A stretch of DNA of 64,000 nt from IMG/VR virus record IMGVR_UViG_2698536687_000001; one strand, given 5' to 3'. A program made the translations under genes and the position numbers. The first letter of the stretch is position 1; the number at the start of each line of letters is the position of its first letter. This document shows positions 8,110-62,500 of the stretch, piece after piece. This DNA comes from a virus. Its lineage: Duplodnaviria; Heunggongvirae; Uroviricota; Caudoviricetes. The notes under the pieces were generated by a model. It saw only the letters and a list, made by a program, of their open reading frames with translations, searched no databases and had not been told where the DNA came from.

Positions 8110-8279
8110 ATAGTATTAGTGTAAGCTTAATTAGCTATTTTTAAGGCACAAAATTTGTTTATTCTATAGACGGAGTTGTGCCTGATTTTATAATTAAATA
8201 TTTCTCGCGTGCTGTAATAAGTGAGAGTGTTAAATGGTAATACTGGTTGTCTTTAGCAAAAGCTTAAAAGGAAATATAA

Positions 8280-8714
8280 ATGAACTCTTCGTCAAAACAG
8301 GCGATCATAATTCATGATGTATTATGCCATTATTGTAAAACTCACTATGATAGTGATGTCATGGTATTAACTATTGAACAGGATGTTAATTCTGGGTGGA
8401 ATCTTCGTGGTAAAGGAGAAATCCATACTAAATGTTCATGTCCTGTCTGCGGAATGATGTATACTGCTGTAAAGAGAATGATACCTATTGAGTGTGATAG
8501 CTATTTATGTCCAACGTGTAATGAATCATCAAACCTTGAATATAATGTATACAAGATCGAACGAGTTCAAGATAGTAATGATTTTACATTTAAAGCTAAT
8601 ATAATATGTAAGAAATGTCACAATAAAAAAACATTGACTAAAGTCATCAAAAAAATCCTAAATATAAAGAGAATTGAAGTTAAACTTACAGGGATTACTA
8701 TTGAGAGATATTAG
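8280..8714 (+). CDS. Cysteine-rich putative double zinc-ribbon protein in an AT-rich islet
   Basis: 144 aa with CxxC/CxCxxC/CxxC/CxxC spacing; AAGGAAATATAAATG RBS; visibly lower GC than flanks. Confidence 0.5.
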   Translation: MNSSSKQAIIIHDVLCHYCKTHYDSDVMVLTIEQDVNSGWNLRGKGEIHTKCSCPVCGMMYTAVKRMIPIECDSYLCPTCNESSNLEYNVYKIERVQDSNDFTFKANIICKKCHNKKTLTKVIKKILNIKRIEVKLTGITIERY

Positions 8715-8819
8715 TGAATAATTTTGATAGGTATTTTATAGCTGGATTGTAATTTATAGCTGAATGTGATGAACATCGAATACAAGCAGGTAATAATCCC
8801 GCCAATCGGCGGGATTTTT

Positions 8820-9614
8820 TTAATCGCTTTCCACTTCTTCCGTGGTGTTTTCTTGCAGTTCTGTTAATGCAGCACGGCACAGGTTACGGGCATTGGCTAT
8901 AGCCACACTTTTTACCTCATCCGTCATTGTGCAGGTAATGTACTGATCGAGTTCTTCAGCTCGGATGATGCTTTTCCCAATCATAAACTCTATTTGCCAG
9001 AGCAGATCGGCATCCATCGTCAGTATTTCAGCCGGGCCTTCTGGGCCTGCGGGGAAGCAAACATAAGACTGTTTGCCCAGGCCGATAACTCGACAACTTG
9101 CTTCAAGAATTGCGCGCTTGAGGTCTGACTTTGTAACGGAAACAGGTTGATTTTCACCAGTGATTACGCCGTTGACATGGAAGTGGAAGGGCATGTAGCT
9201 TGAAATTCGCTCTACTTTCCATACGCCAGCAAGCGATCCTTCATGCAGCACAATGGGGGTAACCGCGAGTTTCATCTCACCATATAACTGCTGGCAGATA
9301 GCTGGATTGCTGAATACATCCAAAGGTTCACACTCAAACAGCGGCGCAATCTGCATGAGGTCCATCATGGTCATACCAGGGGTACGAGCAGTAATGAATC
9401 TGCGCATTCCAGTATCCATTGTGCGCCAGATAGCTACACCATGCTTTTTGCTCACTTCTTCAGTAAAGCCAAGGTGGCACATGATGGTTGTTTCGATAGC
9501 CAGATCGGAGATAGAAACCTTTTCGCCTGGCACTCCATCATTATTGATGGTCACTTCGACACTCTGGCCATTACGTAGGCGGTATTGAATGGTTTTAGTA
9601 TTTTGTGCTGTCAT
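8820..9614 (-). CDS. Hypothetical protein
   Basis: 264 aa from ATG at 9614 (MTAQNTK); the 304-aa six-frame ORF extends upstream of the likely start. Confidence 0.45.
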   Translation of the reverse strand: MTAQNTKTIQYRLRNGQSVEVTINNDGVPGEKVSISDLAIETTIMCHLGFTEEVSKKHGVAIWRTMDTGMRRFITARTPGMTMMDLMQIAPLFECEPLDVFSNPAICQQLYGEMKLAVTPIVLHEGSLAGVWKVERISSYMPFHFHVNGVITGENQPVSVTKSDLKRAILEASCRVIGLGKQSYVCFPAGPEGPAEILTMDADLLWQIEFMIGKSIIRAEELDQYITCTMTDEVKSVAIANARNLCRAALTELQENTTEEVESD

Positions 9615-17100: not shown

Positions 17101-20100
17101 CTTTATGACTTCGTTGCCGCCGGGCGCGTAGCCAGCGCAATGGACTCCGACTCCCACCGCAAAGAGGCGGCGCGTCGCCGGGTATTGTCGGAGTATTCAG
17201 ATACCGGTACCGAAAAAGCAGAGAAGTATCCGTACTTTGAGGATATGGGCTTCGACAGCGTGATTGCTGACGAAGGCCACAACTACCGCAATAGCTATAA
17301 AAATGGTCGCGAAGCGTCACAGCTGGCCTATCTGCCCACCAGCGCGGTGGCGCAATCGGCGCGAGATATGGCAATCAAAAACGCGTACTTGATGAAAAAG
17401 AATGGCGGGCGCGGACCGGTTCTCCTGACTGCAACACCAGTCGTTAACACCCCGATCGATGCATACAACATGCTTTCTCATGTTCTGCCGAAGGAATACT
17501 GGCAGAAGATGGGGATCTACAGTCCTGATGACTTCGTTAAATTCTTCGGCAAGACCAGGCTGGAAACGGTACAGAAAATCAGCGGTGAAGTTGAAGAAAA
17601 AATGGCGCTGGTGGGCTTTGAAAACCTTGATGCGCTGCGCGGTATATTCCATCGCTGGGTAACGCTTAAAACGGCGGAAGACGTTAAGGATACCGTGGAG
17701 ATCCCGGAGCTGGACGAACACCAGCAGGATGCACCACTTACTGAAGAACAACTGGCGGCGTATGAAGAATTGCGTCAGCAGGCGGAAGCGGCGGCCAAAG
17801 CCAACAATGGCGTAACGACCTCGGTCAATGAAGACGGCGTGATTGAGCACGAGAAAGCCCGTCCGATCTTCTCAATAATCAGGGATATGGACCGCGTATG
17901 TACTGACATGGACCTGTACTATCGTCGGATCACCTATCGTTTCCTGCCGGAGTACGCCGATGCGGTGCAGCAGCTGGCGGACAGTTTGCCTAAACAAGCC
18001 ACCAGCGAAGACGACGACAGTGATGATTCAATCACGCAGCAATCGCAATACTCCCTGATAGATAAGGGCGAGTTTATTCAGTTGCAGGTTCCGGAAGCGT
18101 TCGAGCAGGAAGTGAATAAGCGCCTGGCCAGGTTTGGCATTGACGAACAGACCGTAACTCACCCCGTTACGCCCAAATACGCGAAGCTGATTGCCACGCT
18201 GAAGGAGTTTTTCCCGGAAGGTAAGCAAATCATCTTCACCGATGAAAAAACGCAGCACCAGAAGCTCAAGCGCATTATCTGCAATGCTCTTAACCTTGAA
18301 CCTTCAAAGGTGGGGATCCTGAATGCTCAGACGGTTGCCGAGGCAGGTAAAACCGGTAAGAAACTGAAAGCGGTTAAACCGCCGAAAGAGTTACCGGATG
18401 AACCAACAGATGCACAGATAGCGAAATACAACGAGCAAATGGCTCTGTATGACGCCTATATCGCGCAGCAAAATGAAATGTCGTTGGGCGGTCTGGAAAA
18501 GATTGCAGCCGACTTCCAGGAGGGCCGGACTCCGATCATCATCTGCAACAAAAAGGCAGAGGTGGGTATCAACCTGCATCGAGGAACGACTGACATCCAT
18601 CATCTGACGTTGCCATGGACTCCAGCCAGTATTGCGCAACGAAACGGTCGCGGTGCCCGAGTTGGCTCCAACCGTGCAAGCGTTCGCGTTCACTACTACT
18701 GCGGCAAGGGTTCTTTCGATGAATACCGACTGAAGACGCTGAAGCGTAAAGCAGGCTGGATCTCCGATATCCTCCGTTCAGATAAGTCAGAAATGGAGAA
18801 CGCCGACGCCAACGATATGATCGAAATGCAGATGTATACCGCTAAGGATGATGGCGAACGTCTGGCAATGATGCAGGTTCAAATGGATAAGGCGAAAGCC
18901 GCGCAACGCGCTCGCCAGAAAGAACAGGCTACTATCGACCTTCAGAACTACATCAAGGCGCAGCACGCAGCTGGTGAGGATGTGGAGGTGCTTACCGCTG
19001 AATTAGAGCGAAGCAAAGCGGAACTTGAAAAGACCACCGCCGAGGTAGCTAAATTCAAACAGGCGGCAATGGCCAAGGCAGCGGATAACGCAGACTGGAA
19101 GGCACGCTGGGGGAGTGTCCATCACACAGACCGTATGTTGTTAGCACAGTATCGCGCGTCGTTGAAAAGCGCCATTCAGCGCAAGGCTAATATCTCTCAG
19201 GCCATCTCCCGCTATGAGAAATTATTGAACCGTACTCAGAAGGCCGCGACGGATATCAAACGCCTGCGCCCGCTGGTGGAGGATGCATTAAATAAAGGCA
19301 TTCTGGATGTTGATCCTGACCTGGTTAACCATGCGAGTGAGTTCCTTGTTATCGGCGATCGCTCATGGCGTGTAGGCCAATACTACGATTGTGCCGGTGA
19401 TATCGTTCGCATTAAGTCGCTGGACTTCGACAGCCAGCGCGCAGACATGGAGATCATCTTCACCTTCAAAGGCACCAAATCTGGTAACTGGGATGTGAAG
19501 ACGCTGGATAAACAGGTTGATGTAACTCCCGATGAAGATGCTGTTATGCAGAAAATCAGTGGTGGCGTCTCCATCGCCGGGATTAACGACATCGTTTCCT
19601 GTGACGATTTCTACCGTTTCCAGCAGCGCGGCATGATCAAAATCACTGACTCATACGGCGTTCAGACTACAGAGTCAGGCTATAGCATTGATTTTGTTGG
19701 TACCTATACGGACCCACTGAAGCATGCGGTTTACCCGGATCGCCGTGACGGCGCGCTGAAGTCGTCAATTGCAAAATGGGTGCTTGGTATGATGTCGGAA
19801 GGGAATAACCGCCAGATCCGTTCGGCAGAAGCATTCCTGGTTGAACTGTTTGGCTCCAATTATGGCGATGTAATCGCGTCATACGGAGATACGCTATCCC
19901 CTGAAGCAATTCAGGAGAAAATAGCGGATGCGATCGCCAGAATGCCGGAGAAAACAAGCCAGGGGGCTACTCGTAACGGGGATTCTGAACTTGAAGTCAC
20001 CAATGCCATTTTCGGTACCAATGAGTTCCGGGCGTCAGATTATGAGATCACCACAGCACAGTTTGGCACCATTGGCATTTACAGCAATAAAGACGAGATC

Positions 20101-21357: not shown

Positions 21358-21602
21358 AAAAGCGATACTACACAGTAAAGCATGGGACGCTACGAGCATT
21401 ACAAGAGTTTGCTGATAAGCATAACGTTGAGGTGCGCAGGGAAGGGGGAAGTAAAGCTCTGCGCATGTACCGTCCGGACGGGAAATGGCGGACGGTCGTC
21501 GATTTCAAAACAAACAGTGTTCCCCAGGGCGTCCGTGACCGGGCATTCGAGGAATGGGAGCAGATCATCATAGATAACGCATTGCTCCTGAATGCTGATT
21601 GA
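21354..21602 (+). CDS. lxc: Lxc/Bof-like C1 corepressor
   Basis: 82 aa, the size recalled for P1 Bof/Lxc; overlaps preceding ORF stop. Confidence 0.5.
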   Translation: MKKRYYTVKHGTLRALQEFADKHNVEVRREGGSKALRMYRPDGKWRTVVDFKTNSVPQGVRDRAFEEWEQIIIDNALLLNAD

Positions 21603-21746
21603 TATATCTGAGTATATCGAATAATCTCGGCTACTGTTCCATCCGATACCAATGCTCCATAAGGGTAAATTTATGAAGATCCATATCTTCAACCGTTTCC
21701 TGGTCATGGAGCATTGATAGTTTTATCATGGAAAAGAATGAAGTTA

Positions 21747-22160
21747 TCACTTCATCAAAATGTAATTATGGCACGGCAATATACAATCCTTATGGATTTT
21801 ATCTTTGTAGGAATATTTTATCTTTACGTAAGGAGATAATGACAAATCTATCCAGAATGTGAAGTCGTTACGAATCTCCAGTTTGTTGTATATCTGATGC
21901 TTCTGAACTGAAATGGTCTTAATACTGCGAAATCTACACTTCGATATCTGAGTGATGTTATATCCTTTTATCAATAATTCAAGGACTTTGCATTCAACAT
22001 CTGTCAGCGGTGTTGATATCCATACATGTGCAGTAATATCGTATCTATCTATATCAGCTTTTATGTAACGAATTATTTTATTATTCATTTTTATTACGGT
22101 ATGTATTGTAAAACAGGAAATAATAAAGTGGCTTATCATGATAAAGAGCAGTCCATCCAT
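21747..22160 (-). CDS. Small LuxR/FixJ-family HTH transcriptional regulator
   Basis: LTDVECKVLELLIKGYNITQISKCRFRSIKTISVQKHQIYNKL matches the LuxR-type HTH signature; AT-rich gene. Confidence 0.6.
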   Translation of the reverse strand: MDGLLFIMISHFIISCFTIHTVIKMNNKIIRYIKADIDRYDITAHVWISTPLTDVECKVLELLIKGYNITQISKCRFRSIKTISVQKHQIYNKLEIRNDFTFWIDLSLSPYVKIKYSYKDKIHKDCILPCHNYILMK

Positions 22161-22193
22161 GGTTCTGCTCTTTATTTTTAGATGCTATTTAGT

Positions 22194-25100
22194 TCAGAAG
22201 GTATACTTCACGCCCAACATTGCAGATGTGTCGTTATACCCTTTGTCACCGACTTGAACACCTACATTCCCCCACAGGTTCAGTCTGGAATTTATCTGCC
22301 CATCAACACCGGCTTTTATTTCTCCGATATTACGAGCACCGTCCTGATGTACCGTCACGCCATTCATTCGAGTACCAAAATCACGGGTGTTATGCAGCCA
22401 GTTCACTTCCACAAATGGGCTGAATTCCTGGGATTTGCCTTCATCTATACGACTGTGGCTTTTAATCCATGTTTTCACGCCCAGACGGGTACGGACATTA
22501 CCGTCTCCGGTGCTTTCAACACGGGTACCGTTGCTTTCGCGGTGTTCGTCCGCTTTAACACCCATCCAGATGACCTGAGCCTGAGGCTGGACATACCACT
22601 CATTCAAACCACCTTGGTTGCCCGTAAACTCTCCCGCCTTCCAGGTATAACCAGTTTCCAGTGATGCAGTAAGTCCTTTTGATTTCCAGGATTCACTCTG
22701 CAATCCATCACCTTTAACATAGTTATCAAACCAGCTGTACTGTGCCCAAGAGTCCAGGTAAGCTCCGTTATGTGTTTCATCATTGGCATACCAGGTAGCG
22801 TACAGCCCAGTGCTGTAACCATTCACACTACCTTTTGAACGATATCCTGTGCGCACAGATTCTGTATTGTTGTGGTCATTACCGTATCCGGCCATTAAGC
22901 CAAGATGCCAGCGATCCGTCTTATTCCAACCCCACTGTGCTATATCGCCGCCCAGTTGCATAACATAACGGTTGCTTTGTGTTTTTAGCTGGTTGCTTCC
23001 GTCGCGCCAGCGATTGTGTCCACCCTCATGACGCATCCACATGCTTGTAGTTTTCAACTCACCGGTAATCACATCGGTATACTGCATTTGCCCCTGACGT
23101 TCGTGTAGGCGAGTCACGAACATTGTATTTGCAGCAGCAATGTTTGCCGTATAGCTACCAGCTTCTGGGCGAAGATCATTGTCACCTGGTGTTGGGGTCG
23201 GATTTGGCACCGGGTCCGGGTTCGGAGTNNNNNNNNNNNNNNNNNNNNNNNNNNNNNNNNNNNNNNNNNNNNNNNNNNNNNNNNNNNNNGGTCCGGGTTC
23301 GGAGTTGGATTTTCAGGTTGTTTGCCACTAGTTAGGTACCAGTTGCCATTTTTATCACCTTGTCCCCGCCCAAGAGTGTAATCATAAGCACCAGCCGCAA
23401 TTCGCCCAACTTGTACAAAGTCACCGTTAGATTGACCATCAACCTGGATAATGTTGATGCCATTGAGTGTTTGTGCCCCAATACCACCAACATTGTTTAC
23501 GGAAACAAAGGTTTTACCCTCTGTATTTCCTTTTACAACCAACTTATCGATTGGAGAGGTGTCGTCACCAAGAACACCTGAAAAGTAGATATAGCCATTT
23601 TCGCCAGTATAATCACCATTAATTGTTAAAGTGTTTTTTGCATCGCTGCCCAAGTATATAGAGCCATTATTATTAAGATGAGCAACATCCGAATCGCTAA
23701 CCATATTCCAGATGCTGTTTTTAGCTAAATTAACAATGCCACCGTTATACGCGGTTCCAGTCCAGTTGGAATTTTCTAATGCCAGATTGGCAATGCTGTT
23801 ACTATCAGCGCGAATATCGCCATTAAAGGAAGTATTCTTGACTGTAACATCAACCTTCCCTCCCACACCAGCATCATTCCTGAATGAGGAAATAAATGTG
23901 CCGTTATTCTTAATCTGGCTGCTATCTAGCGTGGCGGAAATGACTCCACCCTTGGCATTGAAATTATACCCTTTTTCACTAATCATCACCCCATTCTCTT
24001 GGGTGAGCTCAATTTTGGCATTTTGGGCAACAAATACAGAATCAGCATTATTTCCTGATACGTGAATGGATGTATTATTACCACTAATAACGGTATAATC
24101 ATCACTGCCCCATATTCCATGAGCGTAATCTCCGCTTGTTGTAAGCGATGAAGCAGAACCAAGTGTAACTTTCGCACCTGTATTTGCTGTTACACCATAC
24201 GATTTCTGCCCTTTGGTTATTATTCGGGCTGTGCCGGTATTAACAGTCGCGTCATTTTGTGCGTTTATACCGTGTGAGCCAATACCGTCTGTATTAATAA
24301 CTATTTCTTCGACGCTAATATCAGTTTTTTTACCATGCCCCCACACACCTATCGACTGCTCACCAGATGTGGATATTGTGGATGTACCCGTCAGCTCCAC
24401 GCTTGAATCAGGTGCTGAGTCTGTAGCGGATGAGGCCGTAACATATATACCTTCGGCTGATGTACCGGTAGTTTTTATTGATACACTATCTCCAGTTATT
24501 AAACCACCATTACCACCTACAATCTGTATGGCTTTAGCCTGCTCTCCTGATGTTTCAAGAGATGCATTTACCCCTAGATTTATATTCCCATTATTAGAGA
24601 TAGTTACCGCATGAGCTTGTGTGCCAGAAGTCGTTGCCTGGAGTCCTTTAGATACAGAGATACTAGCGTTATTGCCATCTGCACGTAAACCATAGCCATT
24701 TTGGCCTGAAGTAGAAATATTGACATCAGTTAATTCAGCTAAGCCACCTGACGATGCAAATACTCCCCATGCTCCTGTTCCATCAGTTTTAATCTGCGTA
24801 TTTGTTAGTGAGACATAACCGTTATTTTCGGCAGATACGCCACGAGCTCCCCATGCTTGTGATGGTTTTTTATCCCCCAGAGTGGTAATAGTAGAGTCGC
24901 TAATCACTATGTTGCTATTTTTACCAGAGCTAACAATACCTCTGGCATTATATCCAGATGTAGTAACATTAACTTTGCTTAAGGTAGCCTGGCCTCCATT
25001 TAAAATAGAAACACCACTAGCGTTTACACCAGATGTGTTAATGTCGCCTTGTTCAACAGTTAGTGTTGATTTGTCAACATTAATTCCAGTTGCATTCATC

Positions 25101-25513
25101 CCACTTGTTGTAACTGACATACCATTAGCGATAGTCATTGAAGAATTATTGTCAAGTGAAATACCTGATGCGTTTTTTCCTTTTGTTGTTATTGCAATCC
25201 CACCTTGAGAGTTAAGCGCGGAATTGCTGGAGATATTAACTCCGTTTGCCTTATCACCTTCTGTAGATAAGGTAACTGTACCTTCGGTAGTTAGCTTCCC
25301 TGAATTTGTGATAGAAATTGCATACCCATCACTTCCTGTATTACTTCCTGTATCAATATCGATCTGTTCTTTTTTAACTTGAACAGTATTATCAATATCA
25401 ATAGGAGCAGTTGATGCGTAAGCGTTTGAAAATAATGCGCCGATTATTGCTGCCAGCATGGACAAACGAGGAGCCCCCTCTCTTGAAGAGCTATTATAAG
25501 CAGAAAGTGACAT
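22194..25513 (-). CDS. AIDA-I-type autotransporter adhesin (type Va), interrupted by an assembly gap in its PNPTP linker
   Basis: Signal peptide from MSLS (GAGG RBS), passenger with degenerate NxSG/TxSG repeats, C-terminal beta-barrel ending GVKYTF; the two six-frame ORFs are one gene split by the N-run. Confidence 0.8.
23229..23289. other. Assembly gap (61 N) within the proline-rich linker repeat of the autotransporter
   Basis: Run of N flanked by near-identical GGTCCGGGTTCGGAGT repeats. Confidence 0.99.
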
Positions 25514-26005
25514 AGGTAACCTCAAGATTATACATTATCGAACCAGTATTTTAGTTTGCTGGGTAATTATATTTTCGGAAACATTCATGCATTTTGCTGC
25601 ACAAATCTGAAAGATGATAAATAAGGAAGTTAAATAAATCAATTATTCGTTTTAAATAAATTTCAAACAAAAAAATTACCAAGCAAATATATGCAGGCAG
25701 CATGCGTTTTTACACAAAAAAAAACGCGAGGCATTGAATTTGTATTCAATATTGGCTATGAAAACAACATGGTGGTTTGATGGCTATTAATTTCTTTATT
25801 TATCACTTTTATGTTTATTATATATCTATTAAGAAGGTTAGTAATGAATAATTATATAAAGCTAGCAGCCTCCATTTGTAATTGGTTTTTATCGGTTGTT
25901 TTGGTTTGGTTTATTATGTGTTTAAAAAATGTGTTTGCTTTGTATGCAAGAATGTTTGATAGCCGCTTAAGTGGTAATTTTGGCTTTGGGATAATTAAAT
26001 ATAAG

Positions 26006-26647
26006 TTATAGGTGACCATATTTACCTGTGAGTATACCTTGCGGCACACGAGTTTCTCCCATTCGTTGAGTAGCATTAATAATATTGATGAATGATTCTA
26101 TCAGCGAGGGTTCACGTTGCGTATTACTCCTGCCAACCATTGCCTGAATATAGTTCGCACTCACTACGTTGTTGTATTCAGTTGCAAAGCAACATAGTAA
26201 CGTCAGAACGTGCTCTGTCGTTATTTCGCTCCAGTTGATGTTGAAAAATTCATCGCCTTTTTTGTCATGTTCGGAATCGAAGATGCTTTGGTGGAGGATG
26301 TATTTGCCGGATTCCTTGCGCGGTAACTTAATCGCTTTCTGGCGTTCCAGCTCTTTGTAAATCTGCATTGCCTCAATTAGTACCGGCCTGCCGTTCATGA
26401 AGGGATCGCGCAACCTTACACGCTGGCCAACTCGACCAGTAATAAAGCTGTTTTCCTCTTCCACCAGCACGATAAAACCCTTTTCCTCTTTTTCTCGCAA
26501 TTCGCGCAGCAGCTGGAGTTCCATATCGCGGCGGCGTTCAGGGTAGCTGGTCCGCTCAGCCATTATCAGCTCGTTATTGATCCATGCAGCAGTCATTGAC
26601 GCCGGTTTGCCGACGCTCATCGAAACAACGCATATTTTCTTATCCAT
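26006..26647 (-). CDS. mat: Hypothetical protein at the P1 Mat position
   Basis: 213 aa from ATG 26647 (MDKKICVV); sits between the cargo island and ref as mat does in P1. Confidence 0.45.
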   Translation of the reverse strand: MDKKICVVSMSVGKPASMTAAWINNELIMAERTSYPERRRDMELQLLRELREKEEKGFIVLVEEENSFITGRVGQRVRLRDPFMNGRPVLIEAMQIYKELERQKAIKLPRKESGKYILHQSIFDSEHDKKGDEFFNINWSEITTEHVLTLLCCFATEYNNVVSANYIQAMVGRSNTQREPSLIESFINIINATQRMGETRVPQGILTGKYGHL

Positions 26648-34404: not shown

Positions 34405-35889
34405 TCATTCATTAAGCCATGCCAGAGCTTCATCAACCTGCGCTTCGTCTTCGACGCTAAGCACTTCGTCCTGGGGAACATAATCCGCCAGCATAGCGAA
34501 ACAATATGTATCCCAATGGTCTGGTGAGTGCAGGTTGAGTTTTTTCTTCATATCCTCCTTACTCATCACCTTCCATTGACCTGCGGAGTTAATCCCTACA
34601 GGGATTTTCGACGCTTCCTCAATAGTTTCATTACCCTTATCCAGTCTCATACGACCAGATTTTACGGCCTCTGCGGCTTGAACGTTGGCATAAGCACGTT
34701 TATCAAAGTACAGGCTCTTATCTTCACGGCTATGCATCTTTTTACCCCAGCGTATACGCTGTACGGTAATACCATAATACTCGTACATCAGATCCGCCGT
34801 TGCTTTACCCAGGCCATCGCCGTCTATCGCTATGGTGATATTGGGGAATCGCTCAGGATTACATTCTGCGAAAATTTTGGCGGCAAGCTGCGTTTCTGTA
34901 ACGTCTGTGTATTCCAGCATTCGATAGTTGATTACACGGCGTTTATTTCGCTGGCCGGACACCATCATGATATTGATAACGGACTTATCCCGTCCCGTAC
35001 CACCAGCAACGTCCACACATGCAAGCCAGCCCCATCCTTTTGCAATCTTGACTTTCCGCCGCGTTGCACGTTCAACCTCATCACGTCCAAGAAGGAAGCC
35101 ATCCTGTGATTTAGGGAATAGGCCGCGTACCTTAATCATGTACATAGGGTTATCACGCCCGCCGTACTCCGCCAGCTTCATTTTGATAAATGCTGGCGTT
35201 ACCAACGGTGATTCCTCACTGTTAAGCGTGATCGCCGTATAAACGCCATCAGGGTTACCAGGACGCTTGGCCAGTTTATGGTGTGTATCGTAGAAATAGC
35301 CGCTTGGGCGTGTAGGCTGTGACAGCAATAAGATGCGGTTATCCTGTCCGGTAAGAGCACCGGTGATGATACCGAAAGCTCTATCACTGACACCGGAGGC
35401 TTCATCGATAATATACAGAAGATGATCTGCGTGTTCACCGGCGAGAGCTTCTTCACTTCCCAGACGAAAGCCCTTCGGTACTACAGTCCATACACCTTTA
35501 CCAGTAACCTCATAGAAAGCGGTTTCTGTCAGAACAAAATAATCAGCAAGCCATGGAAAACGGCTGGTGGCAGTAGCCCAGTTTATCTTGATGTACTTGA
35601 ATATACCGGTCATTACCTGCTGAATTTTGTTCGCAACGATAATGGCTCGGGCACCGGGATACATGATTATGAACAACATGATCATGATAGAAGTCATGTC
35701 TGATTTCCCGGTACCGTGACCAGACGAAACAGATGTCTTGCTACCCTGTTCCTGCACAGACTCAATAATCAGATCCTGCTGCCAGGTAGGTGTTTTGCCG
35801 AACAAAACATCAGCGGCCGCAATCCAGTCATAACGATATAGCGCCACCAGCTCGCGCCAACGTGGATCCGTTACGCAACTTCTGGCCAT
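34405..35889 (-). CDS. pacB: PacB, terminase large subunit
   Basis: 494 aa, terminase ATPase region; directly downstream of pacA. Confidence 0.85.
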
Positions 35890-37708: not shown

Positions 37709-38752
37709 TTATCTAACGTTCGACGAGTGACTTGTGATAGCGCCGACTCCAAGCGCGTAATCAAAGAACAATCGTTGATGCATCGCCAGCCTACCGTGCG
37801 TCTTCTCCCAATTATCGCGGTCACGCTCAATATCACGTTGGCATGACTGGCACAGAGGAATTGCGTAAATGTCATGCGCGCATAATCGACTATGACGAAC
37901 GATATAAGGCGTAATGTGAGCGCCAGCTCCCGCCGCTCCACACCCACAGCATGGACGGGAAGCAACAAAGTCCATGTACTCAGGTAATTTTAGCGATTGC
38001 AGTTTTGGGATTTTGAAATGCGCCATGCCAGGGTCGGAGTCAACATCCACAGGGCATACTTTTGCACGCATCGGCGCGGCGCGTTCTTCCATCATCTGAA
38101 CATATGCTGTAGCGCGATCGTCATACGGGCGAATATCCGCCTCTTTCAGAGGTCCGCTATCCTGCGTTGCGGCTTTCATCTTATTTATTGATATACGGCA
38201 AACTTCTTCCGGCATCAGGTGCATCATGTTGCGCATGAAAGCCCACCAGCACAGTTCCTGAATACTTAAATCATGGCCATCTGAAAGCCCCATTTCCTGA
38301 CGGGCGACATCCAGTATCCAGTTAACGCGATTATTATGCAGCGTTTCTTTCAGCTCATTAAAACCACGCATCCGGTAATGGTTATCGTGATGCCAGCACA
38401 ACAACACCGCGCTATTATCTCGTTCAGCGTGGACAATATGGTTGTCACACCAGCTACGATCTGCGGCCTGGCATCGCCCCTCTTTCCTGCGCAACCACGC
38501 CACCAGCGCGTCAATTCCACCAATACGACGAAACAGCTCATCGCTGTTAAAAAACGGCTGCAACGCCTCATTTGTTGCCATGGTTTGCTCGGAAACAACG
38601 AGGCCGTCGTCCATGTGCTCGATTAACTCACGCGGCACCGGCTCCATAATAAATTTACGGCCAGCCTCCACCAGCTTTCTGACTTCCTGATCCACTTTGA
38701 ATGTGGCGACGCCAAGCTCTTTTTGTACAAAGGGAGTAATAATGGCTTTCAC
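37709..38752 (-). CDS. pdcB: PdcB-like cysteine-rich protein
   Basis: 347 aa with C-terminal CCGCG...CQSCQ cluster; position as P1 pdcB. Confidence 0.5.
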
Positions 38753-38779
38753 ATCACACCTTTCATCACTGATTGGGCT

Positions 38780-38959
38780 TTATCTGCTGCCCGGCATTCT
38801 CTGTTTAAGCACAACCATTTCCTGACGGCATAACACAGCAATAGCGGTCCTGGCACCAATTTGCTTACCAACCAGGTATTGCTTTACCTCGCGGCGACTC
38901 ACGCCATCAAGAAGCATCTTTAACGCTTCACGGGACAACTTGTTGTATTTACGTGCCAT
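38780..38959 (-). CDS. pdcA: PdcA-like small protein
   Basis: 59 aa from ATG 38959 (GGAG RBS, 4 nt after doc stop). Confidence 0.4.
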   Translation of the reverse strand: MARKYNKLSREALKMLLDGVSRREVKQYLVGKQIGARTAIAVLCRQEMVVLKQRMPGSR

Positions 38960-38963
38960 TAAT

Positions 38964-39344
38964 CTACTCCGCAGAACCATACAATCTACGTAACGTGTCG
39001 GCGACAGAAGATACAGATATCTCGCCAGTCGCAGCGCCTACAGTAAGGTCTGCCAGTTCAGGTGAATCAAATACCTGCACCCCGTTACGGCGTAGAAATA
39101 ACAGCGCACTGTTTAGCGCGGTACGCTTATTGGCATCATTGAATATATGCCCTCTCGCTGTAGCCACCAGGTAGGTGGCGGAGACTTCGAAAAGGTCGGT
39201 GATCTCTTCGTAGGCAACTCTGGCCTGAACTCTCCCGATAATGGCCTCTGCCCTACCCGGATCTGACATTCCCGGCAGGCCGCCGTAGCGGTTTATATTC
39301 GCATCATGAAGCGCAATAAGTTCTTCCGGTGATATATGCCTCAT
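38964..39344 (-). CDS. doc: Doc toxin (Fic-fold kinase)
   Basis: 126 aa [25 protein letters not shown]...[13 protein letters not shown], matching P1 Doc. Confidence 0.95.
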
Positions 39345-39565
39345 TATCGGTTAACCAGTTCCTTGTTGGTGGAGTCCAGGGTGTCAAACAGGGATGCAAA
39401 TTCAGCATCCAGCGCCGCTTTTTTGTAGGCTTCGAAAGTAGCCTTGCTGACAATTACTGCTGGCTCACGGCCTCTGCGGGTGATTTCAACCTCTTCCCCG
39501 GCCTCAACATTGTTGAGCACTTCAGAAAGGTTGCCGCGCGCGGTACGGAAGTTAATGGATTGCAT
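39344..39565 (-). CDS. phd: Phd antitoxin
   Basis: 73 aa [39 protein letters not shown], overlaps doc start. Confidence 0.9.
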
Positions 39566-39569
39566 AAAT

Positions 39570-39600
39570 ACCTCGTGTACTCGTTATGTGTACACAATTA
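39570..39600 (-). promoter_or_regulatory. phd-doc promoter/operator palindromes
   Basis: GTGTAC (39575) and TGTGTACACA (39587) directly upstream of phd. Confidence 0.5.
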
Positions 39601-39741
39601 TAAACTTCACAGGCATAAAGCACCAGCACTTTGCGGCTTAACAAACCTCTAGGCAGGTCATTCGTAGCCTAATGTCCGAACTGCTAAAGCATCCAAGTTG
39701 CTGTAGAATCACCGCCAATTACATAAGCCTGAAATAAGTGG

Positions 39742-41304
39742 ATGAAAATGACAAGTATTCAACAACGTGCAGAGCTTCATCGTCAAATCTGGCAAATTGC
39801 TAACGATGTCAGGGGTTCGGTCGATGGATGGGATTTTAAGCAATACGTTCTGGGCGCACTTTTCTACCGTTTTATCAGCGAAAATTTTTCCAGTTATATT
39901 GAAGCCGGTGATGACAGTATCTGTTATGCGAAACTGGATGACAGCGTAATTACTGATGACATTAAAGACGATGCCATCAAAACTAAAGGCTACTTCATCT
40001 ACCCCAGTCAGCTTTTCTGCAACGTAGCTGCGAAAGCAAATACTAATGACAGACTGAATGCAGATTTAAACAGCATCTTCGTTGCTATCGAAAGTTCTGC
40101 TTACGGTTATCCTTCAGAAGCTGACATCAAAGGTTTGTTTGCTGATTTCGATACCACCAGTAACCGCCTGGGTAACACCGTTAAAGATAAAAATGCCCGC
40201 CTAGCTGCGGTTCTGAAAGGGGTTGAAGGGTTAAAACTTGGTGACTTCAACGAACATCAGATTGACCTGTTCGGTGATGCCTATGAGTTCCTGATCTCTA
40301 ACTATGCGGCAAATGCCGGTAAGTCAGGCGGCGAGTTCTTTACACCGCAGCACGTCTCTAAGCTGATTGCACAACTGGCTATGCACGGGCAGACCCACGT
40401 TAACAAAATCTACGACCCGGCAGCAGGCTCCGGTTCGCTGTTGTTGCAGGCTAAAAAACAGTTTGATGACCATATCATCGAAGAAGGTTTTTTTGGTCAG
40501 GAAATCAACCATACGACCTATAACCTGGCGCGTATGAACATGTTTTTGCACAACATCAACTACGACAAGTTTGATATCAAGCTGGGCAATACGCTGACTG
40601 AACCGCACTTCAGAGATGAAAAACCGTTTGATGCCATCGTTTCTAACCCGCCGTATTCGGTGAAATGGATTGGCAGCGATGACCCGACGCTGATTAACGA
40701 TGAACGTTTTGCCCCAGCTGGCGTTCTGGCCCCCAAATCCAAAGCTGACTTTGCGTTTGTATTACATGCGCTGAACTATCTTTCTGCCAAAGGTCGTGCT
40801 GCGATTGTTTGCTTCCCGGGTATTTTTTACCGTGGCGGTGCGGAGCAGAAAATCCGTCAGTATCTGGTCGACAATAACTATGTCGAAACCGTGATTTCAC
40901 TGGCACCGAATCTGTTCTTTGGCACCACCATTGCCGTCAATATTCTGGTGTTGTCTAAACATAAAACCGATACCAACGTTCAGTTTATTGACGCCAGCGA
41001 GCTATTCAAAAAAGAGACTAATAACAACATCCTGACTGATGCCCATATCGAACAGATTATGCAGGTATTTTCCAGCAAGGAAGATGTTGCTCATCTGGCA
41101 AAATCTGTCACGTTTGAGGCCGTTGTCGCTAATGACTATAACCTGTCGGTAAGCAGCTATGTGGAAGCGAAAGATAACCGCGAAATTATCGATATCGGTG
41201 AGCTGAATGCTGAGCTGAAAACCACGGTCAGCAAAATCGACCAGTTGCGTAAAGATATTGATGCGATTGTGGCTGAAATTGAAGGCTGCGAGGTGCAGAA
41301 ATGA
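39742..41304 (+). CDS. hsdM: Type I restriction-modification methyltransferase subunit (type IC, EcoR124-like)
   Basis: 520 aa, AdoMet motif [10 protein letters not shown] and NPPY catalytic motif. Confidence 0.95.
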
Positions 41305-42551
41305 GCGAGATGAGTTATCTGGAAAAATTGCTGGATGGGGTTGAGGTTGAATGGAAAGCAGTGGGCGATATCGCCGGGTATTCAACAACCAAAGTTGATG
41401 CTGATAAACTTGATGCCACTTCATTCGTTGGCGTTGATAATCTCCTTGCTGATAAAGGCGGTCGCATTGATGCCACCTATCAGCCTAATACGGCACGTTT
41501 AACTGCCTATGAGCCAGGTGATATTCTTTTAGGTAATATTCGCCCATATTTAAAGAAAGTTTGGATGGCGGAGAATAATGGCGGGTGCAGTGGTGATGTC
41601 CTTGCTATACGCATTTTAGCAGACTGTAAAAAAATTATTAGTCCAGAATATCTCTACTATGCATTATCGTCGGATTCATTTTTTTCTTACAGTATGCAGC
41701 ACGCTAAAGGGGCAAAGATGCCTCGAGGCAGTAAAGATGCAATTTTAAACTATCAAATACCCATCCCTTGTCCCAGCGCCCCGGGAAAATCCCTTGCCAT
41801 CCAGTCTGAAATCGTTCGGATTCTGGATAAATTTACTGCACTTACCGCTGAACTTACCGCTGAGCTTACCGCTGAGCTTAACATGCGTAAAAAACAGTAC
41901 AACTACTATCGCGACCAGTTGTTTAGTTTTAAAGAGAGTGAGGTTGAGTGGAAGACCTTAGGGGAAATTGGCCATTTTACCCGAGGTAAACGTTTTGTTA
42001 AAACAGATATGCTTTCTGAAGGTTATCCATGTATTCATTATGGAGAAATGTATACTTATTACAACGTATGGACAAATAAAACAAAGTCATTTGTTAGCCA
42101 TGAACTGGCAAGTAAATTAAGAGTTTCAGAGTATGGTGATGTGATAATTGTTGCTGCCGGGGAAACAATTGAAGATATAGGAAAAGGAACAGCTTGGTTG
42201 GGTAAATCAAATGTTGTTTTTCATGATGCTTGCTTTTCATACAGATGCTTACTAAACCCTAAATATATTGCATACTTTACTCGAACAAAAATATTCCATG
42301 ATCAAATAAAAAAACACATATCTTCAGGAAAGATATCAGCAATTAACGCAAATGGGTTATCCAAGGTAAAAATACCTATGCTTTCAGCGAAGGAACAAGC
42401 TCGCATTGTCGACATACTCGATAAATTCGACACCCTGACTAACTCTATCACTGAAGGTCTTCCGCGTGAAATCGAGTTGCGCCAGAAACAATACGAGTAC
42501 TATCGTGATTTACTGTTCAGTTTCCCAAAACCTGAAACTGTCAGTAATTAA
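41301..42551 (+). CDS. hsdS: Type I restriction-modification specificity subunit with central TAEL repeats
   Basis: 416 aa; two target-recognition domains around [46 protein letters not shown]; second domain visibly AT-rich; overlaps hsdM stop. Confidence 0.9.
41841..41876 (+). repeat. Three tandem 12-bp repeats (CTTACCGCTGAR) encoding LTAE x3 in the hsdS spacer
   Basis: CTTACCGCTGAA CTTACCGCTGAG CTTACCGCTGAG. Confidence 0.95.
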
Positions 42552-42672
42552 TTGACCATTGCTACCGACCGGGCCACCTTAACACCCGGTCAGTATATAG
42601 ACTATTTTTTACACGCTGGAAGTCACAATTACCGCCCTTCCGGCCCTTGCCAGACGGCACAAAGGATGCGCT

Positions 42673-45600
42673 ATGACTCATCAAACACACACCATTGCTG
42701 AATCTAATAACTTTATCGTTCTTGATAAGTACATCAAAGCTGAGCAAACAAGCGACAGCTACCAGAGCGAATCGGACCTGGAACGTGAACTGATTCAGGA
42801 CCTGCGAAATCAGGGCTATGAATTTATATCCGTAAAATCACAGTCGGCAATGCTGGCCAATGTTCGGGAACAGCTTCAGAACCTCAATGGTGTGGTGTTT
42901 AATGACAGCGAATGGAGGCGTTTCACGGAGCAGTATCTGGACAACCCGAGCGATGGCATTCTGGATAAGACCCGTAAAATCCATATCGACTATATTTGCG
43001 ACTTTATTTTTGATGACGAGCGTCTTGAGAATATCTATCTGATAGATAAAAAGAATCTCATGCGTAATAAGGTGCAGATTATCCAGCAGTTTGAACAGGC
43101 GGGTTCTCATGCTAACCGTTATGACGTCACGATCCTGGTTAATGGCTTACCACTGGTACAAATCGAACTGAAAAAGCGTGGTGTAGCGATTCGTGAGGCT
43201 TTCAACCAGATACATCGTTACAGTAAAGAGAGTTTTAACAGCGAAAATTCCCTGTTTAAGTATCTGCAGCTGTTCGTCATTTCCAACGGCACTGATACCC
43301 GTTATTTTGCCAACACCACAAAGCGCGATAAAAACAGTTTTGACTTCACCATGAACTGGGCTAAATCAGACAATACACTGATTAAAGACCTCAAAGACTT
43401 TACCGCTACCTTTTTCCAGAAACATACTCTGCTTAATGTTCTGGTGAACTACAGCGTTTTTGACAGCAGTCAGACACTACTGGTAATGCGACCGTACCAG
43501 ATTGCCGCCACCGAGCGCATTCTGTGGAAAATTAAGAGTTCCTTTACAGCGAAGAACTGGTCAAAACCGGAAAGCGGTGGGTATATCTGGCACACTACCG
43601 GTTCTGGTAAAACCCTCACCAGCTTTAAAGCCGCGCGTCTGGCAACAGAGCTGGACTTTATTGATAAAGTCTTCTTTGTGGTCGACAGGAAAGACCTCGA
43701 TTACCAGACCATGAAGGAATATCAGCGTTTTTCGCCAGACAGCGTCAACGGCTCGGAAAATACCGCAGGCCTTAAACGAAATCTGGATAAGGACGATAAC
43801 AAAATTATCGTCACTACTATTCAGAAACTTAATAACCTGATGAAAGCAGAAAGCGACCTGCCTGTATATAATCAGCAAGTGGTGTTTATATTTGATGAAT
43901 GCCACCGCAGCCAGTTTGGAGAAGCGCAGAAAAACCTGAAGAAGAAATTCAAACGCTATTATCAGTTTGGTTTTACCGGCACACCTATTTTCCCGGAAAA
44001 CGCCTTAGGCTCAGAAACGACCGCCAGCGTATTTGGTCGTGAATTGCATTCGTATGTAATTACCGATGCGATTCGTGATGAAAAAGTGCTCAAATTCAAG
44101 GTGGACTACAACGATGTGCGGCCACAGTTTAAGTCTTTAGAGACAGAAACTGACGAGAAAAAACTAAGTGCGGCTGAAAATCAGCAGGCGTTTCTTCATC
44201 CCATGCGTATTCAGGAAATCACGCAATATATCCTGAACAACTTCCGCCAGAAAACCCACCGTACCTTCCCAGGCTCCAAAGGCTTTAATGCCATGCTGGC
44301 AGTGAGCAGCGTGGATGCCGCGAAAGCCTATTACGCGACGTTTAAACGGTTACAAGAAGAAGCCGCTAATAAATCGGCTACCTATAAACCGCTGCGTATT
44401 GCGACAATCTTCTCCTTTGCCGCCAATGAAGAACAAAATGCCATTGGTGAAATTTCCGATGAAACTTTTGATACCAGCGCAATGGACAGCAGTGCTAAAG
44501 AGTTTCTGGACGCTGCAATTCGTGAATATAACAGCCATTTTAAAACTAACTTTAGCACCGACAGTAACGGTTTTCAGAACTACTATCGTGATTTAGCCCA
44601 GCGGGTTAAAAATCAGGATATCGATCTGCTAATTGTCGTGGGGATGTTTTTAACCGGCTTCGATGCTCCAACATTGAACACGCTATTCGTCGATAAAAAC
44701 TTGCGTTTTCACGGCCTGATGCAGGCATTTTCCCGCACCAACCGTATTTATGATGCAACTAAAACCTTCGGTAATATCGTCACTTTCCGGGATCTGGAAC
44801 GCTCAACTATTGATGCCATAACGCTGTTTGGTGACAAAAACACCAAAAATGTGGTGTTAGAAAAGAGTTATACAGAGTATATGGAAGGCTTTACTGATGC
44901 TGCTACAGGTGAAGCTAAACGCGGCTTCATGACAGTAGTTTCAGAACTGGAACAACGGTTCCCTGACCCTGCCAGTATTGAAAGTGAAAAAGAGAAGAAA
45001 GACTTCGTTAAACTGTTTGGCGAATACCTGCGTGCCGAGAACATCCTGCAAAACTATGATGAATTTGCCACGCTAAAAGCCCTGCAACAAATCGATCTTA
45101 GCGATCCTGTTGCGGTAGAAAAATTCAAAGCAGAACATTATGTGGATGATGAAAAGTTCGCTGAATTGCAAACAATTCGTCTCCCTGCTGATCGCAAGAT
45201 TCAGGATTATCGTTCTGCCTATAACGATATTCGCGACTGGCAGCGCCGTGAGAAAGAAGCTGAGAAAAAAGAGAAATCAACCACTGACTGGGATGACGTA
45301 GTTTTTGAGGTCGATTTGCTGAAGTCTCAGGAAATAAACCTGGATTATATCCTTGGACTGATTTTCGAACACAACAGACAAAATAAAGGCAAGGGCGAAA
45401 TGATCGAAGAGGTCAAACGCTTAATTCGTTCAAGCCTGGGGAACCGAGCGAAAGAGGGCCTGGTGGTCGATTTTATTCAGCAAACGAACCTGGATGATTT
45501 ACCAGATAAAGCCAGTATCATTGAGGCATTCTTTACGTTTGCTCAACGCGAACAGCAACGTGAAGCAGAAGCATTGATAAAAGAAGAAAATCTCAATGAA

Positions 45601-45789
45601 GAAGCAGCAAAACGCTATATTCGCACGTCTTTAAAACGCGAATACGCCACCGAAAATGGCACAGAATTAAACGAAACATTACCAAAACTTAGTCCATTGA
45701 ATCCGCAATATAAAACGAAAAAACAGGCAGTTTTCCAGAAAATCGTCTCGTTTATTGAGAAGTTTAAAGGCGTAGGCGGAAAAATATAG
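42673..45789 (+). CDS. hsdR: Type I restriction endonuclease subunit
   Basis: 1038 aa; helicase motif I (TGSGKT) and DEAH-type motif II (FDECH). Confidence 0.95.
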
Positions 45790-45868
45790 CCCAATTCGTG
45801 TTTTTCTTGCGGGTTCTTAATTAAACCCGCAAGAGACCGTGGGGTTCCAAATGGCTAATATACTCCCC

Positions 45869-45955
45869 TTACCCATGCGCGACGATGCCGCCAAAAGTGA
45901 TAGAGAACAGCCAGAAATAGATCGCGGTCATAATGATTTTGAATACCGTGTTCAT
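45869..45955 (-). CDS. Small hydrophobic peptide (28 aa)
   Basis: MNTVFKIIMTAIYFWLFSITFGGIVAHG; AGGAG 8 nt upstream of ATG; below the six-frame length cut-off. Confidence 0.35.
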   Translation of the reverse strand: MNTVFKIIMTAIYFWLFSITFGGIVAHG

Positions 45956-45984
45956 ATCTTCAGCTCCTGTGATTGATTGGATAT

Positions 45985-46016
45985 ATGCCGCGCCCCTTGC
46001 GGCATGTTTTTATTTT
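45985..46016 (+). terminator. Rho-independent terminator downstream of hsdR
   Basis: ATGCCGC-GCCCCTT-GCGGCAT hairpin followed by GTTTTTATTTT. Confidence 0.6.
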
Positions 46017-46039
46017 CACTTTCTCTGTTTTAAAAAACA

Positions 46040-46056
46040 AGATTTATTAGAGCAGC
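46040..46056 (-). promoter_or_regulatory. C1-operator-like site
   Basis: AGATTTATTAGAGCAGC, 14/17. Confidence 0.4.
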
Positions 46057-46562
46057 TATTGTTGATGGAGAAGCACGTTTTCATACTCCCTGACCATTAA
46101 CGTAAGTACGCCGTGACTCCTGAAAACACGCGCTACTTCAATCTTATCTTCCAGCGCGAACGCAATTTTACTTAGACCAATTTTCTTAAGGAGATTAATC
46201 TTTGCTGGACCATCATTTCTGTCATCGGTGGCAGGACGCATAGATAGCAAAGGCTCAGCCCCGTTTGTTACGTGCTTACGCAACCAGGCTCGTGTTTTAT
46301 CCCTGGCTATCTCACAGCGCCCGGTTACAAACCAGAGCGTGTAAATGCAGGACAACTGGCGCACCATATCAATAACTGGAGTTATGGGTGTATCGGTGTC
46401 ACAGGCGAGATTAAACTCGTTCCAGTCCTTTGTTAATGCACCTTTGCCTGGTGGCGGAAGCAAATGCAGCCTGTCTTCAGTTGCTTCTGATATTGTTCCA
46501 TCAATATCGACTACGACGATGTACGGACGTTCCAGGTGTGCCTGTTTGTTGAAAATACTCAA
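46056..46562 (-). CDS. pap: HAD-superfamily phosphatase (P1 Pap-like)
   Basis: 168 aa with VVDIDGT motif. Confidence 0.6.
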   Translation of the reverse strand: MSIFNKQAHLERPYIVVVDIDGTISEATEDRLHLLPPPGKGALTKDWNEFNLACDTDTPITPVIDMVRQLSCIYTLWFVTGRCEIARDKTRAWLRKHVTNGAEPLLSMRPATDDRNDGPAKINLLKKIGLSKIAFALEDKIEVARVFRSHGVLTLMVREYENVLLHQQ

Positions 46563-46634
46563 ATGCCCTCCTCATTGGACGAAAAAAATGCTGGTGGGCG
46601 CACTCCACCAGCATTAAAAGTGACACTGTAACTA

Positions 46635-59561: not shown

Positions 59562-62500
59562 TTAGAGCAATATGCCTAAAACGTCATGAGCAACACCTCG
59601 AGTGTCCCCCTTACAAGACACAGAACGTCTGGCAAAAAGAGGTTCCACTCTGAAGCCATTGTCATGATAAAGCTCTCTGATGTTTGGCGCGCCACTGTTA
59701 GTAATGAGAACCTTTGCACCTCGGCGATGAGCATCCGTCAACAGAGACACCAGGCGTTTTTGCTCTTCAAACTTAAAGTCATGACCGGAATAGTTCGTGA
59801 ATCCCTCTGTATTTGGAAGCGGTTCATATGGCGGATCGCAAAAAATGACATCTCCTTCTCCGGCAGCTTCAATCACCGCAGCAAAATCACCACATACAAA
59901 CTCAGAACGACCTTCCGCACCGAGGAAGGCTTCCATCTCCTGTAATGGGAAATACGGAGTTTTATACTTCCCATAACCGACATTGAACTCACCGGCCTGG
60001 TTGTAACGCGTCAATCCGTTAAAACAATGTCGGTTCAGGAACAAAAACGCCGCTGCGCGATGTAAATCATCATAGACTTGTTTGTTAAACGCATTCCGTA
60101 CTGCCAAGTATCCTTCCTGTGTCTTGTAGTCCTGGAAAAACTGATGCGCCAGTGTGATAAGTGAATGCGCCTCGCGTTGCAGAGTCTTGTAAAAGTTAAT
60201 CAGGTCAGCATTCACATCATTTAGCAGATTTTCCTGGTATCCGGCATTCATGAAGACAGCTCCGCCACCGACGAAAGGTTCAATCAGGCGCTTCCCTTCT
60301 GGCAAATAGCGAAAGATTTGTTCCAGAACACCAAATTTTCCACCAGCCCATTTGAATATGGACCGTTCGAATTCTGCCGCTGGTTTAACTTTTCGCTCTT
60401 TTGTTTCACGCCCTTCATTCTGCCGACATGCAGCCTTGGTTATCCGCTCGCCAATCCAGCGCATTACTGGTATCGCCATACTATTGCCGATCGCTTTGTA
60501 ACGCGGTCCGTCAGCTGCAAGCATCGCGGCCTCTTCTTCGCTTAAATCTGGATAGTGATTGTGCAGATATACCAGTTCATCTGAATTAACTTTTTTACGC
60601 TTTTCCGTAGGGATCAACGTATGCCCATCAGGAAAACCTTGAAGTCTCTCACATTCGACAGGGGTAAGACGGCGGACAGCTACTTCTTCGTTTCTTACTT
60701 CATAGCAAACAGCAGTTGGATTTTGAGCCATTAGAGATGGTGAAGTATTCTTAGTTGCTGCATGTTGTGTACCACTCATACGCTCAGGAAAAGCCAATGT
60801 AACAAGATGCTCATGGCTTTCTTGCTCACGCGCCCGCAATGTACCATGCCCTTCTGACCAAAAACCTGCTCCAGTGCTGCTAAAAACGGCAAGGTCAGTG
60901 GCATCTTTAAAGTCTCTTGCCTTTACTGTCGATGCGGTTTCATCGTCAATATATTCCCCAAATGCCGCCATCCTGAAACCGTTTACGGCTTTCGTCGATT
61001 TCATACCGGGGGACATGCCAGCGTGTAGGCATGGATTTAGGCTTTCGCCACTGATTGCAGCGCCATTTGCAGTAATGGCGGAAGCGATTTCCTTCTTTTT
61101 TCGGCTCGGCGCAATATTCCGGCGCACGCCTTCGAACTCAAAAAGTACCGTTGCGGGATCGAGGTCTGTTCGAGCACTTGCGACAACAAACACGCGTCGG
61201 CGTCGTTGTGCCACTCCGAAGTATTGGGCATCAAGGATTCTCCAGGCCACCTTTCGCTGCGGTCCATAAATACAACCACACTGTGGCCACTTTGGAGCAT
61301 GGCAACCGGTTTTGCCATCCCACCGCCAGAACGCGTTACTTTTTCCTGATTCAGGTCGATCACCTGGTTCAAATGGCGCATCTTCTCCAGCCAATCCGGC
61401 AAGGAAACATCCGAAGGCGTTATCTGCCGATGACAAGACTCCTGGGACATTTTCCCAGACGATAACGGCTGGTTTGAGAAATGACTCAGCCCGTTTGTCG
61501 TCAATTGCATTTGCAAGCTCCACATACTTTAAAGTTAGCGCGCCACGCTCATCATCAAGCCCACCACGTAATCCAGCGATACTGAATGCCTGACAGTTAT
61601 GGACCACCGCACCATTGAGGATATAGGAATGATCACCTTCGACTTCTATGTTGTATACAGTATCTAGGCCTACCGATTTAAACTCTTTGACTGTTCGTAA
61701 AAGCATTCCATGAGCCAATCTTGATTTACGTGACAATTTCTGCGGGCAGATTGTTACCTGATAATAATTCCGTTGATTTACCACGCGATCCTCAATCACT
61801 TTTTTGGGCTTAACTTCAATAAAGCTGACCGAAGAAACGTAACCACAAGTCTGTGACAACTCCGCAACGCCCCAAGCAAGCGCAGGACTAACACTATTAA
61901 TTCTAAATCCCGCTTTACCACTTGGTGTCCCATCAGTATCAAGATAGCCTTGTAAAAACACATGACGCAATGGATGCGACATAACCCATGCAGGGATACG
62001 CTTAGCATGGCTTAACTCGCCAAAATGTTCATTAAGCCAATTGGCATAACACGTATCATTCAAGGTTACTTTGATGCTCCCTCGGATTTCGCTTGCCACG
62101 GAAAATATGTTTTCTGGTATGCGGCAATGAAACTTTCTCAATTTCTGGCAATTTATGCCAAAAACAACCGCCTTCTTAGATTTACCTCTCCATCTCCTAA
62201 TATATCCATCGCCAACATAAGCGCCCGCAAGATACATAGCCTGTTCTTCAGACAAGAACCGAGAACAAATATCTGGAGATGCAATATTGAAATTAGTTAG
62301 AGCACACCATTGATATCCCGGCATATCACATGCTGCTCGCCATTCCGGTTCAGACAACAACTCTCTCTTAAAATATGTGCCATTTTTCCGGGTGTTTTGG
62401 GCTTTCCACCGAACCGCCAGGAAGGGATGGTCATTGGTTGTTCTTATACCTAAAGGCTGCCCAACGGCATTAAGTAACCCCGTATTAGCTATTTTTGAAC

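Follow-up and report, generated by a model that had tools for sequence, protein, structure and literature searches.

The closest described relatives of the locus presented here are EcoR124I and EcoR124II, the type IC restriction-modification systems of plasmids R124 and R124/3. EcoR124I has two copies of a Thr-Ala-Glu-Leu (TAEL) repeat unit in its specificity subunit and recognizes GAA N6 RTCG, while EcoR124II has three units and recognizes GAA N7 RTCG (PMC3874165). Three units are also found in EcoDXXI and EcoprrI and have been called the optimum number; hybrids of EcoR124I and EcoDXXI with either unit number had recognition sequences as predicted (PMC3874165). Here we describe an hsdM-hsdS-hsdR locus of this family in the IMG/VR virus record IMGVR_UViG_2698536687_000001 (Caudoviricetes), a stretch of 64,000 nucleotides which we call the window and whose numbering is used throughout. 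With high confidence, we read the locus from its sequence as a type IC system that is complete and probably active, in the slot that separates phd/doc from pap in a P1-like, IncY-type phage-plasmid, a site known to be variable. The three-repeat HsdS allele of this system appears to be new, while the rest of the system is ordinary and well known. The locus shares with EcoR124I and EcoR124II its gene order, HsdM and HsdR proteins of about 99% identity, the TAEL tract and a P1-derived downstream flank. Unlike EcoR124, which is carried on a conjugative plasmid, it lies in an essentially complete P1-like phage-plasmid.

Assignment to the EcoR124 family is based on comparisons of all three subunits. 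HsdM differs from EcoR124 HsdM (7bst_D) at only 5 of 520 residues (1157 bits), and its DPAAGSGS and NPPY motifs are identical. HsdR aligns with EcoR124I HsdR (2w00_A) across all 1038 residues with 2295 bits, and about seven differences are seen in the roughly 970 residues displayed. The nuclease residues D151, E165 and K167, the residues Q179 and Y183, and the GSGKT and DECH motifs are identical to those of EcoR124I, and residues 728-1031 match the C-terminal EcoR124_C domain (PF12008, E=1.8e-71). HsdS gave a full-length match to EcoR124 HsdS (7bst_A, E=1.8e-73) with near-identical N-terminal, central and C-terminal conserved regions, yet in the same alignment neither of its target-recognition domains (TRDs) is related to its EcoR124 counterpart. 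Therefore, the half-sites of the window system should not be GAA and RTCG. Genes are ordered hsdM-hsdS-hsdR with hsdR set apart from hsdMS, as in the type IC family, and the full type I domain set was found in the products using Pfam and PADLOC. By these comparisons the locus belongs to the EcoR124 family (type IC) and differs from its archetype in the specificity subunit. An earlier reading of this DNA made without database searches (the sequence-only reading) had proposed such a system from hsdM (520 aa), hsdS and hsdR (1038 aa) of matching sizes and motifs; its open reading frames (ORFs) were exact, and the near-identity of HsdM and HsdR bears it out.

The surroundings of the locus are those of phage P1. 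Local blastn comparison with P1 (NC_005856), covering P1 positions 1-48000 and 82149-90408, showed blocks of 96.7-98.4% identity, at 97-98% over most of the window, with the same synteny on either side of the hsd cassette. Blocks of 94-99% identity were found with the IncY plasmid pRHB14-C22_4. Homology to P1 ends at window position 39641 (P1 87970) and restarts at 45865 (P1 84482), and doc and phd lie directly upstream of the cassette on the minus strand; the sequence-only reading had likewise put the system next to phd/doc. Three features of the P1 record itself mark these sites: P1 87969-88647 is annotated as 98% identical to sequence upstream of the EcoDXXI hsd locus, P1 84263-84482 as 96% identical to sequence downstream of that locus, and P1 84399-84482 as 98% identical to sequence downstream of hsdR on R124/3. 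Both junctions of the window cassette are thus the breakpoints marked in the P1 record for the hsd flanks of EcoDXXI and R124/3. The EcoDXXI locus resembles the window locus in being preceded by phd/doc and in joining P1 sequence downstream at the same point. The link of P1-derived flanks to type IC hsd loci is reportedly the subject of Tyndall et al. 1997 (cited in PMC12707154).

Canonical P1 carries no hsdMSR at this site; it has the block from pmgT to humD there (P1 84483-87968), which is absent from the window site. This agrees with the P1 map given in the sequence-only reading, in which the interval between phd and pap holds humD, lxr, hot, upf and pmg genes. The further suggestion that the hsd system replaced backbone genes stands relative to P1 and fails as a description of something unusual. 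The phd-doc/hsdMSR/pap arrangement (at least 80% of window positions 38700-46700) is present in 472 PLSDB plasmids, including conjugative plasmids with only P1-derived flanks, and the canonical P1 stretch from doc to pap (again at least 80%) in 26. The same arrangement is present in two phage records, phi456 and vB_EcoM-673R5. Plaque formation by phi456 (PMC10967188) shows that the phage can do without the missing pmg genes. Of 5426 complete E. coli genomes, 1303 contain type IC hsdS sequence. The arrangement of the slot is therefore neither unusual nor new, having been known since 1997, and because it is widespread and previously known, the label of cargo that replaced backbone depends on the use of P1 as the reference.

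The same counts raise the possibility that the slot held the hsd cassette earlier or by default, and that the pmgT-to-humD block of canonical P1 is the replacement. In addition to the 472 plasmids against 26, this would be in line with a survey of P1-like phage-plasmids that placed the pmgT-to-humD block among eight highly variable regions, with res-mod as another (PMC9603915). However, frequency says nothing about the direction of replacement, and the 472 include the conjugative plasmids with P1-derived flanks only. The GC content of the cassette (43.4%) is below that of its flanks (46-49%) and of the whole window (47.4%), which fits an acquired module. We regard an older hsd occupant as possible but somewhat improbable.

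What distinguishes the window system from its relatives is HsdS. The 120 best HsdS homologues include dozens of alleles that combine a TRD1 of 100% identity with an unrelated TRD2, and dozens that combine a TRD2 of 98.6-100% identity with an unrelated TRD1. The replacement of a domain suspected in the sequence-only reading is thus confirmed as ordinary TRD reassortment, both domains recurring with other partners. The second TRD was also correctly described as more AT-rich than the rest of hsdS, with a GC content of 32.9% compared to 41.5% in TRD1 and 44-47% in the conserved parts of the gene (hsdM, 45%; hsdR, 43%). This low GC content belongs to the TRD2 module.

The pair of TRD1 and TRD2 is rare. 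It was found in two PLSDB plasmids, both from one farm and both with two TAEL units, and in a few near-identical proteins (P0001-P0005). The pair was detected in none of 5,426 complete E. coli genomes, and no exact match to the 416-aa HsdS was found in a collection of 15 billion proteins. The TRD pair was also not matched in pattern scans of IMG/VR or GTDB representative genomes, with a gap allowing for one to three units, or of Joint Genome Institute (JGI) metagenomes, with a gap allowing for two to four. The three-unit form of the allele was present in none of the collections searched, and its other carriers have one or two units. Matches to HsdS in the PDB were EcoR124 HsdS, with its unrelated TRDs, and otherwise weak matches to S subunits of thermophiles.

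The TAEL tract was identified by Tandem Repeats Finder as a 12-bp repeat of 3.8 copies at 41836-41880, and its in-frame reading is T-A-L followed by three TAEL units at 41844-41879. The sequence-only reading had the copy number right; its coordinates, 41841-41876, describe the same tract 3 nt out of phase. The window has three units, as do EcoDXXI and EcoprrI. Repeat number, which the sequence-only reading took to be prone to slippage, does vary in nature, also among copies of this one hsdS allele. With the window as reference (three units, HsdS of 416 aa), pRHB14-C22_4 (CP057799.1) has two units (412 aa) and no other hsdS difference in about 1.24 kb, and a contig of E. coli GCA_019367825.1, which encodes P0005 in the same P1 context, has one unit (408 aa) and no other difference in hsdS DNA. 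EcoR124I and EcoR124II are the counterparts of the pRHB14-C22_4 and window forms, respectively. By analogy with the N6 and N7 spacers of this pair, the three-unit form probably recognizes the half-sites of its two-unit sibling spaced one bp further apart.

Sequences next to the identical hsdS are not identical. Compared to pRHB14-C22_4 and GCA_019367825.1, hsdM and hsdR diverge by 2-5% in patches. Since hsdS is identical while hsdM and hsdR diverge, the allele has moved between diverged type IC loci by recombination. Over window positions 41250-42612, where the hsdS region was compared among the three P1-like elements, the pattern is a mosaic centered on the specificity gene. Patches of 2-6% divergence are located, for example, at 42500-43250 relative to pRHB14-C22_4 and at 43250-43750 relative to the GCA_019367825.1 contig.

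Unit number also varies more widely. It is polymorphic in five of 49 hsdS allele clusters, and among 116 HsdS homologues two units are present in 100, three in about nine and one in six. For 58 PLSDB plasmids, taken at even spacing as a sample of plasmid-borne type IC hsdS, unit number was counted from alignment spans, with six checked by sequence: 35 (about 60%) have two units and 23 (about 40%) have three. One reading of this variation is that the tract is a programmed, high-frequency specificity switch resembling phase variation and not a site of occasional mutation. The same hsdS with one, two and three units in three elements and zero substitutions over about 1.2 kb would fit such a switch, as would the five variable clusters. 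Yet the tract is short, with two to three copies of a 12-bp unit of which one is imperfect in the window, and the window has no invertase, second hsdS copy or inverted repeats beyond short imperfect matches. Phase-variable type I systems are recognized by an extra hsdS with inverted repeats and a recombinase or by a long simple-sequence tract, and the locus has neither. The identical hsdS sequences could instead reflect a recent recombinational spread of the allele. We consider a programmed switch quite unlikely, and favor occasional gain or loss of units.

Activity of the system is probable given its intact ORFs and motifs. Alternatively, the locus could encode a system without activity, or one with methyltransferase activity alone. 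The HsdR subunit of type IC systems binds the methyltransferase core weakly, which makes restriction dependent on how strongly the genes are expressed. Such weak binding is consistent with the assembly pathway in PMC12707154. However, all three ORFs are full length, with no frameshifts or insertion sequence (IS) elements, and their products have the same catalytic motifs as the characterized EcoR124I, making an inactive or methylation-only system very unlikely. Switching by inversion, as in a shufflon, was rejected, the window having a single hsdS and, besides the 3 x 12-bp tract, only short and imperfect repeats.

Two observations weigh against our interpretation of an active system whose tract gains and loses units. 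The first TAEL unit (41844-41855) has a synonymous GAA codon for Glu where the other two units have GAG, and GAG is found at this position in every unit of seven other hsdS alleles examined. Duplication of a unit in the two-unit form would therefore account for the three-unit tract only in part. Also, a scan for promoters and terminators found no enrichment over shuffled sequence.

Positions of the cassette, its parts and neighboring genes are given in Table 1, together with those of a second slot considered below.

Table 1. Features of the hsd cassette, its flanks and the res/mod slot in the window (positions 1-64,000)
Feature	Position	Strand	Details
LuxR/GerE-like ORF	21747-22160	-	in res/mod slot
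Autotransporter beta-barrel	22194-23210	-	338 aa; overlaps passenger ORF
Autotransporter passenger, AC_1 domain	23114-25525	-	803 aa
doc, toxin of the P1 phd/doc addiction module	38964-39344	-	126-aa ORF; Fic/DOC Pfam match; 97% identity to P1 doc region
phd, antitoxin; last P1 gene ahead of the cassette	39344-39565	-	73-aa ORF; PhdYeFM_antitox Pfam match
Type IC hsd cassette	39642-45864	+	6223 bp; in place of the P1 pmgT-to-humD block
hsdM, N6-adenine methyltransferase subunit	39742-41304	+	520 aa; Pfam HsdM_N and N6_Mtase
hsdS, specificity subunit	41301-42551	+	416 aa; Methylase_S Pfam match
TRD1 (aa 19-152)	41355-41756	+	expected reader of the 5' half-site
Three TAEL units (ACCGCTGAACTT, ACCGCTGAGCTT, ACCGCTGAGCTT)	41844-41879	+	within the central conserved helix of HsdS
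TRD2 (aa 223-362)	41967-42386	+	expected reader of the 3' half-site; AT-rich
hsdS-hsdR gap	42552-42672	+	121 bp; candidate sigma-70-like site at 42579-42608 (consensus match), where a separate hsdR promoter is expected
hsdR, translocase and endonuclease subunit	42673-45789	+	1038 aa; Pfam HSDR_N, SWI2_SNF2, T1R_D3-like and EcoR124_C
pap homologue (phosphatase); first P1 gene past the cassette	46056-46562	-	HAD_PNKP Pfam match; P1 annotation

The hsdM and hsdS genes overlap by 4 nt. In type IC systems, hsdR has its own separate promoter. A perfect 10-bp inverted repeat (CTTGCGGGTT, an 8-nt loop and AACCCGCAAG) was spotted by eye at 45806-45833, 17 bp past the hsdR stop and still within the cassette, near its right end. 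This repeat may form a hairpin at the end of the transcript; it was missed by the terminator scan because it has no T run.

Differences from P1 and from pRHB14-C22_4 were also observed elsewhere along the element. Window positions 21600-26126 correspond to the slot of res/mod, the type III EcoP1I system of P1, and contain an autotransporter and a LuxR-like gene instead. The autotransporter is split into two ORFs, suggesting a frameshifted gene. A second restriction system in this slot was rejected, as these genes have no significant match to defense models; the sole match was a weak one of the LuxR-like ORF to a CARF model. Between P1-homologous blocks, about 700 bp at 8112-8820 occupy the place where P1 has isaB and IS1 (22531-24241). 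The IS1 copy is absent from the window and the content differs; this stretch corresponds to "variable region 2" of PMC9603915. In pRHB14-C22_4 (CP057799.1), the nearest relative, a Tn3-like TnAs1 element breaks the darB region and IS2 is inserted between two ORFs annotated as terminase, and the window is intact at both points (17734-17740 and 35612-35616). Window positions 56483-58863 and 60674-61101 have no match to pRHB14-C22_4.

Near-identity to EcoR124I, an enzyme of established mechanism, suggests how the system would work. An M2S complex would methylate a bipartite target, and R2M2S would translocate on and cut unmodified DNA. HsdS would set the target, TRD1 reading the 5' half-site and TRD2 the 3' half-site, and the distance between them would depend on how many TAEL units the connecting helix contains; three units would give a spacer one bp longer than that of the pRHB14-C22_4 allele. 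The allele may have originated by reassortment of two common TRD modules, and its siblings may differ by gain or loss of a 12-bp unit through replication slippage or unequal crossing-over. In the lysogen, the system could provide a shield from unmodified incoming DNA and mark the DNA of progeny phage. Since the res/mod slot holds other genes, hsd is the sole restriction system seen in the element.

What appears to be unusual phage cargo is the prevailing content of a slot already known to vary among P1-like phage-plasmids, and may serve as a calibration point for similar cases. In the window, pRHB14-C22_4 and the E. coli draft genome, a single allele occurs naturally with three, two and one units, respectively. 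One proposal, which we make tentatively and hold to be doubtful, is that P1-borne type IC systems gain and lose TAEL units at a far higher rate than nearby sequence mutates, and that the one-, two- and three-unit forms of this allele are all functional and recognize the same half-sites at three spacings. If so, the one-unit form would be a functional enzyme with a spacer shorter than that of any characterized type IC enzyme, and the three-unit form in the window would represent a specificity not yet recorded.

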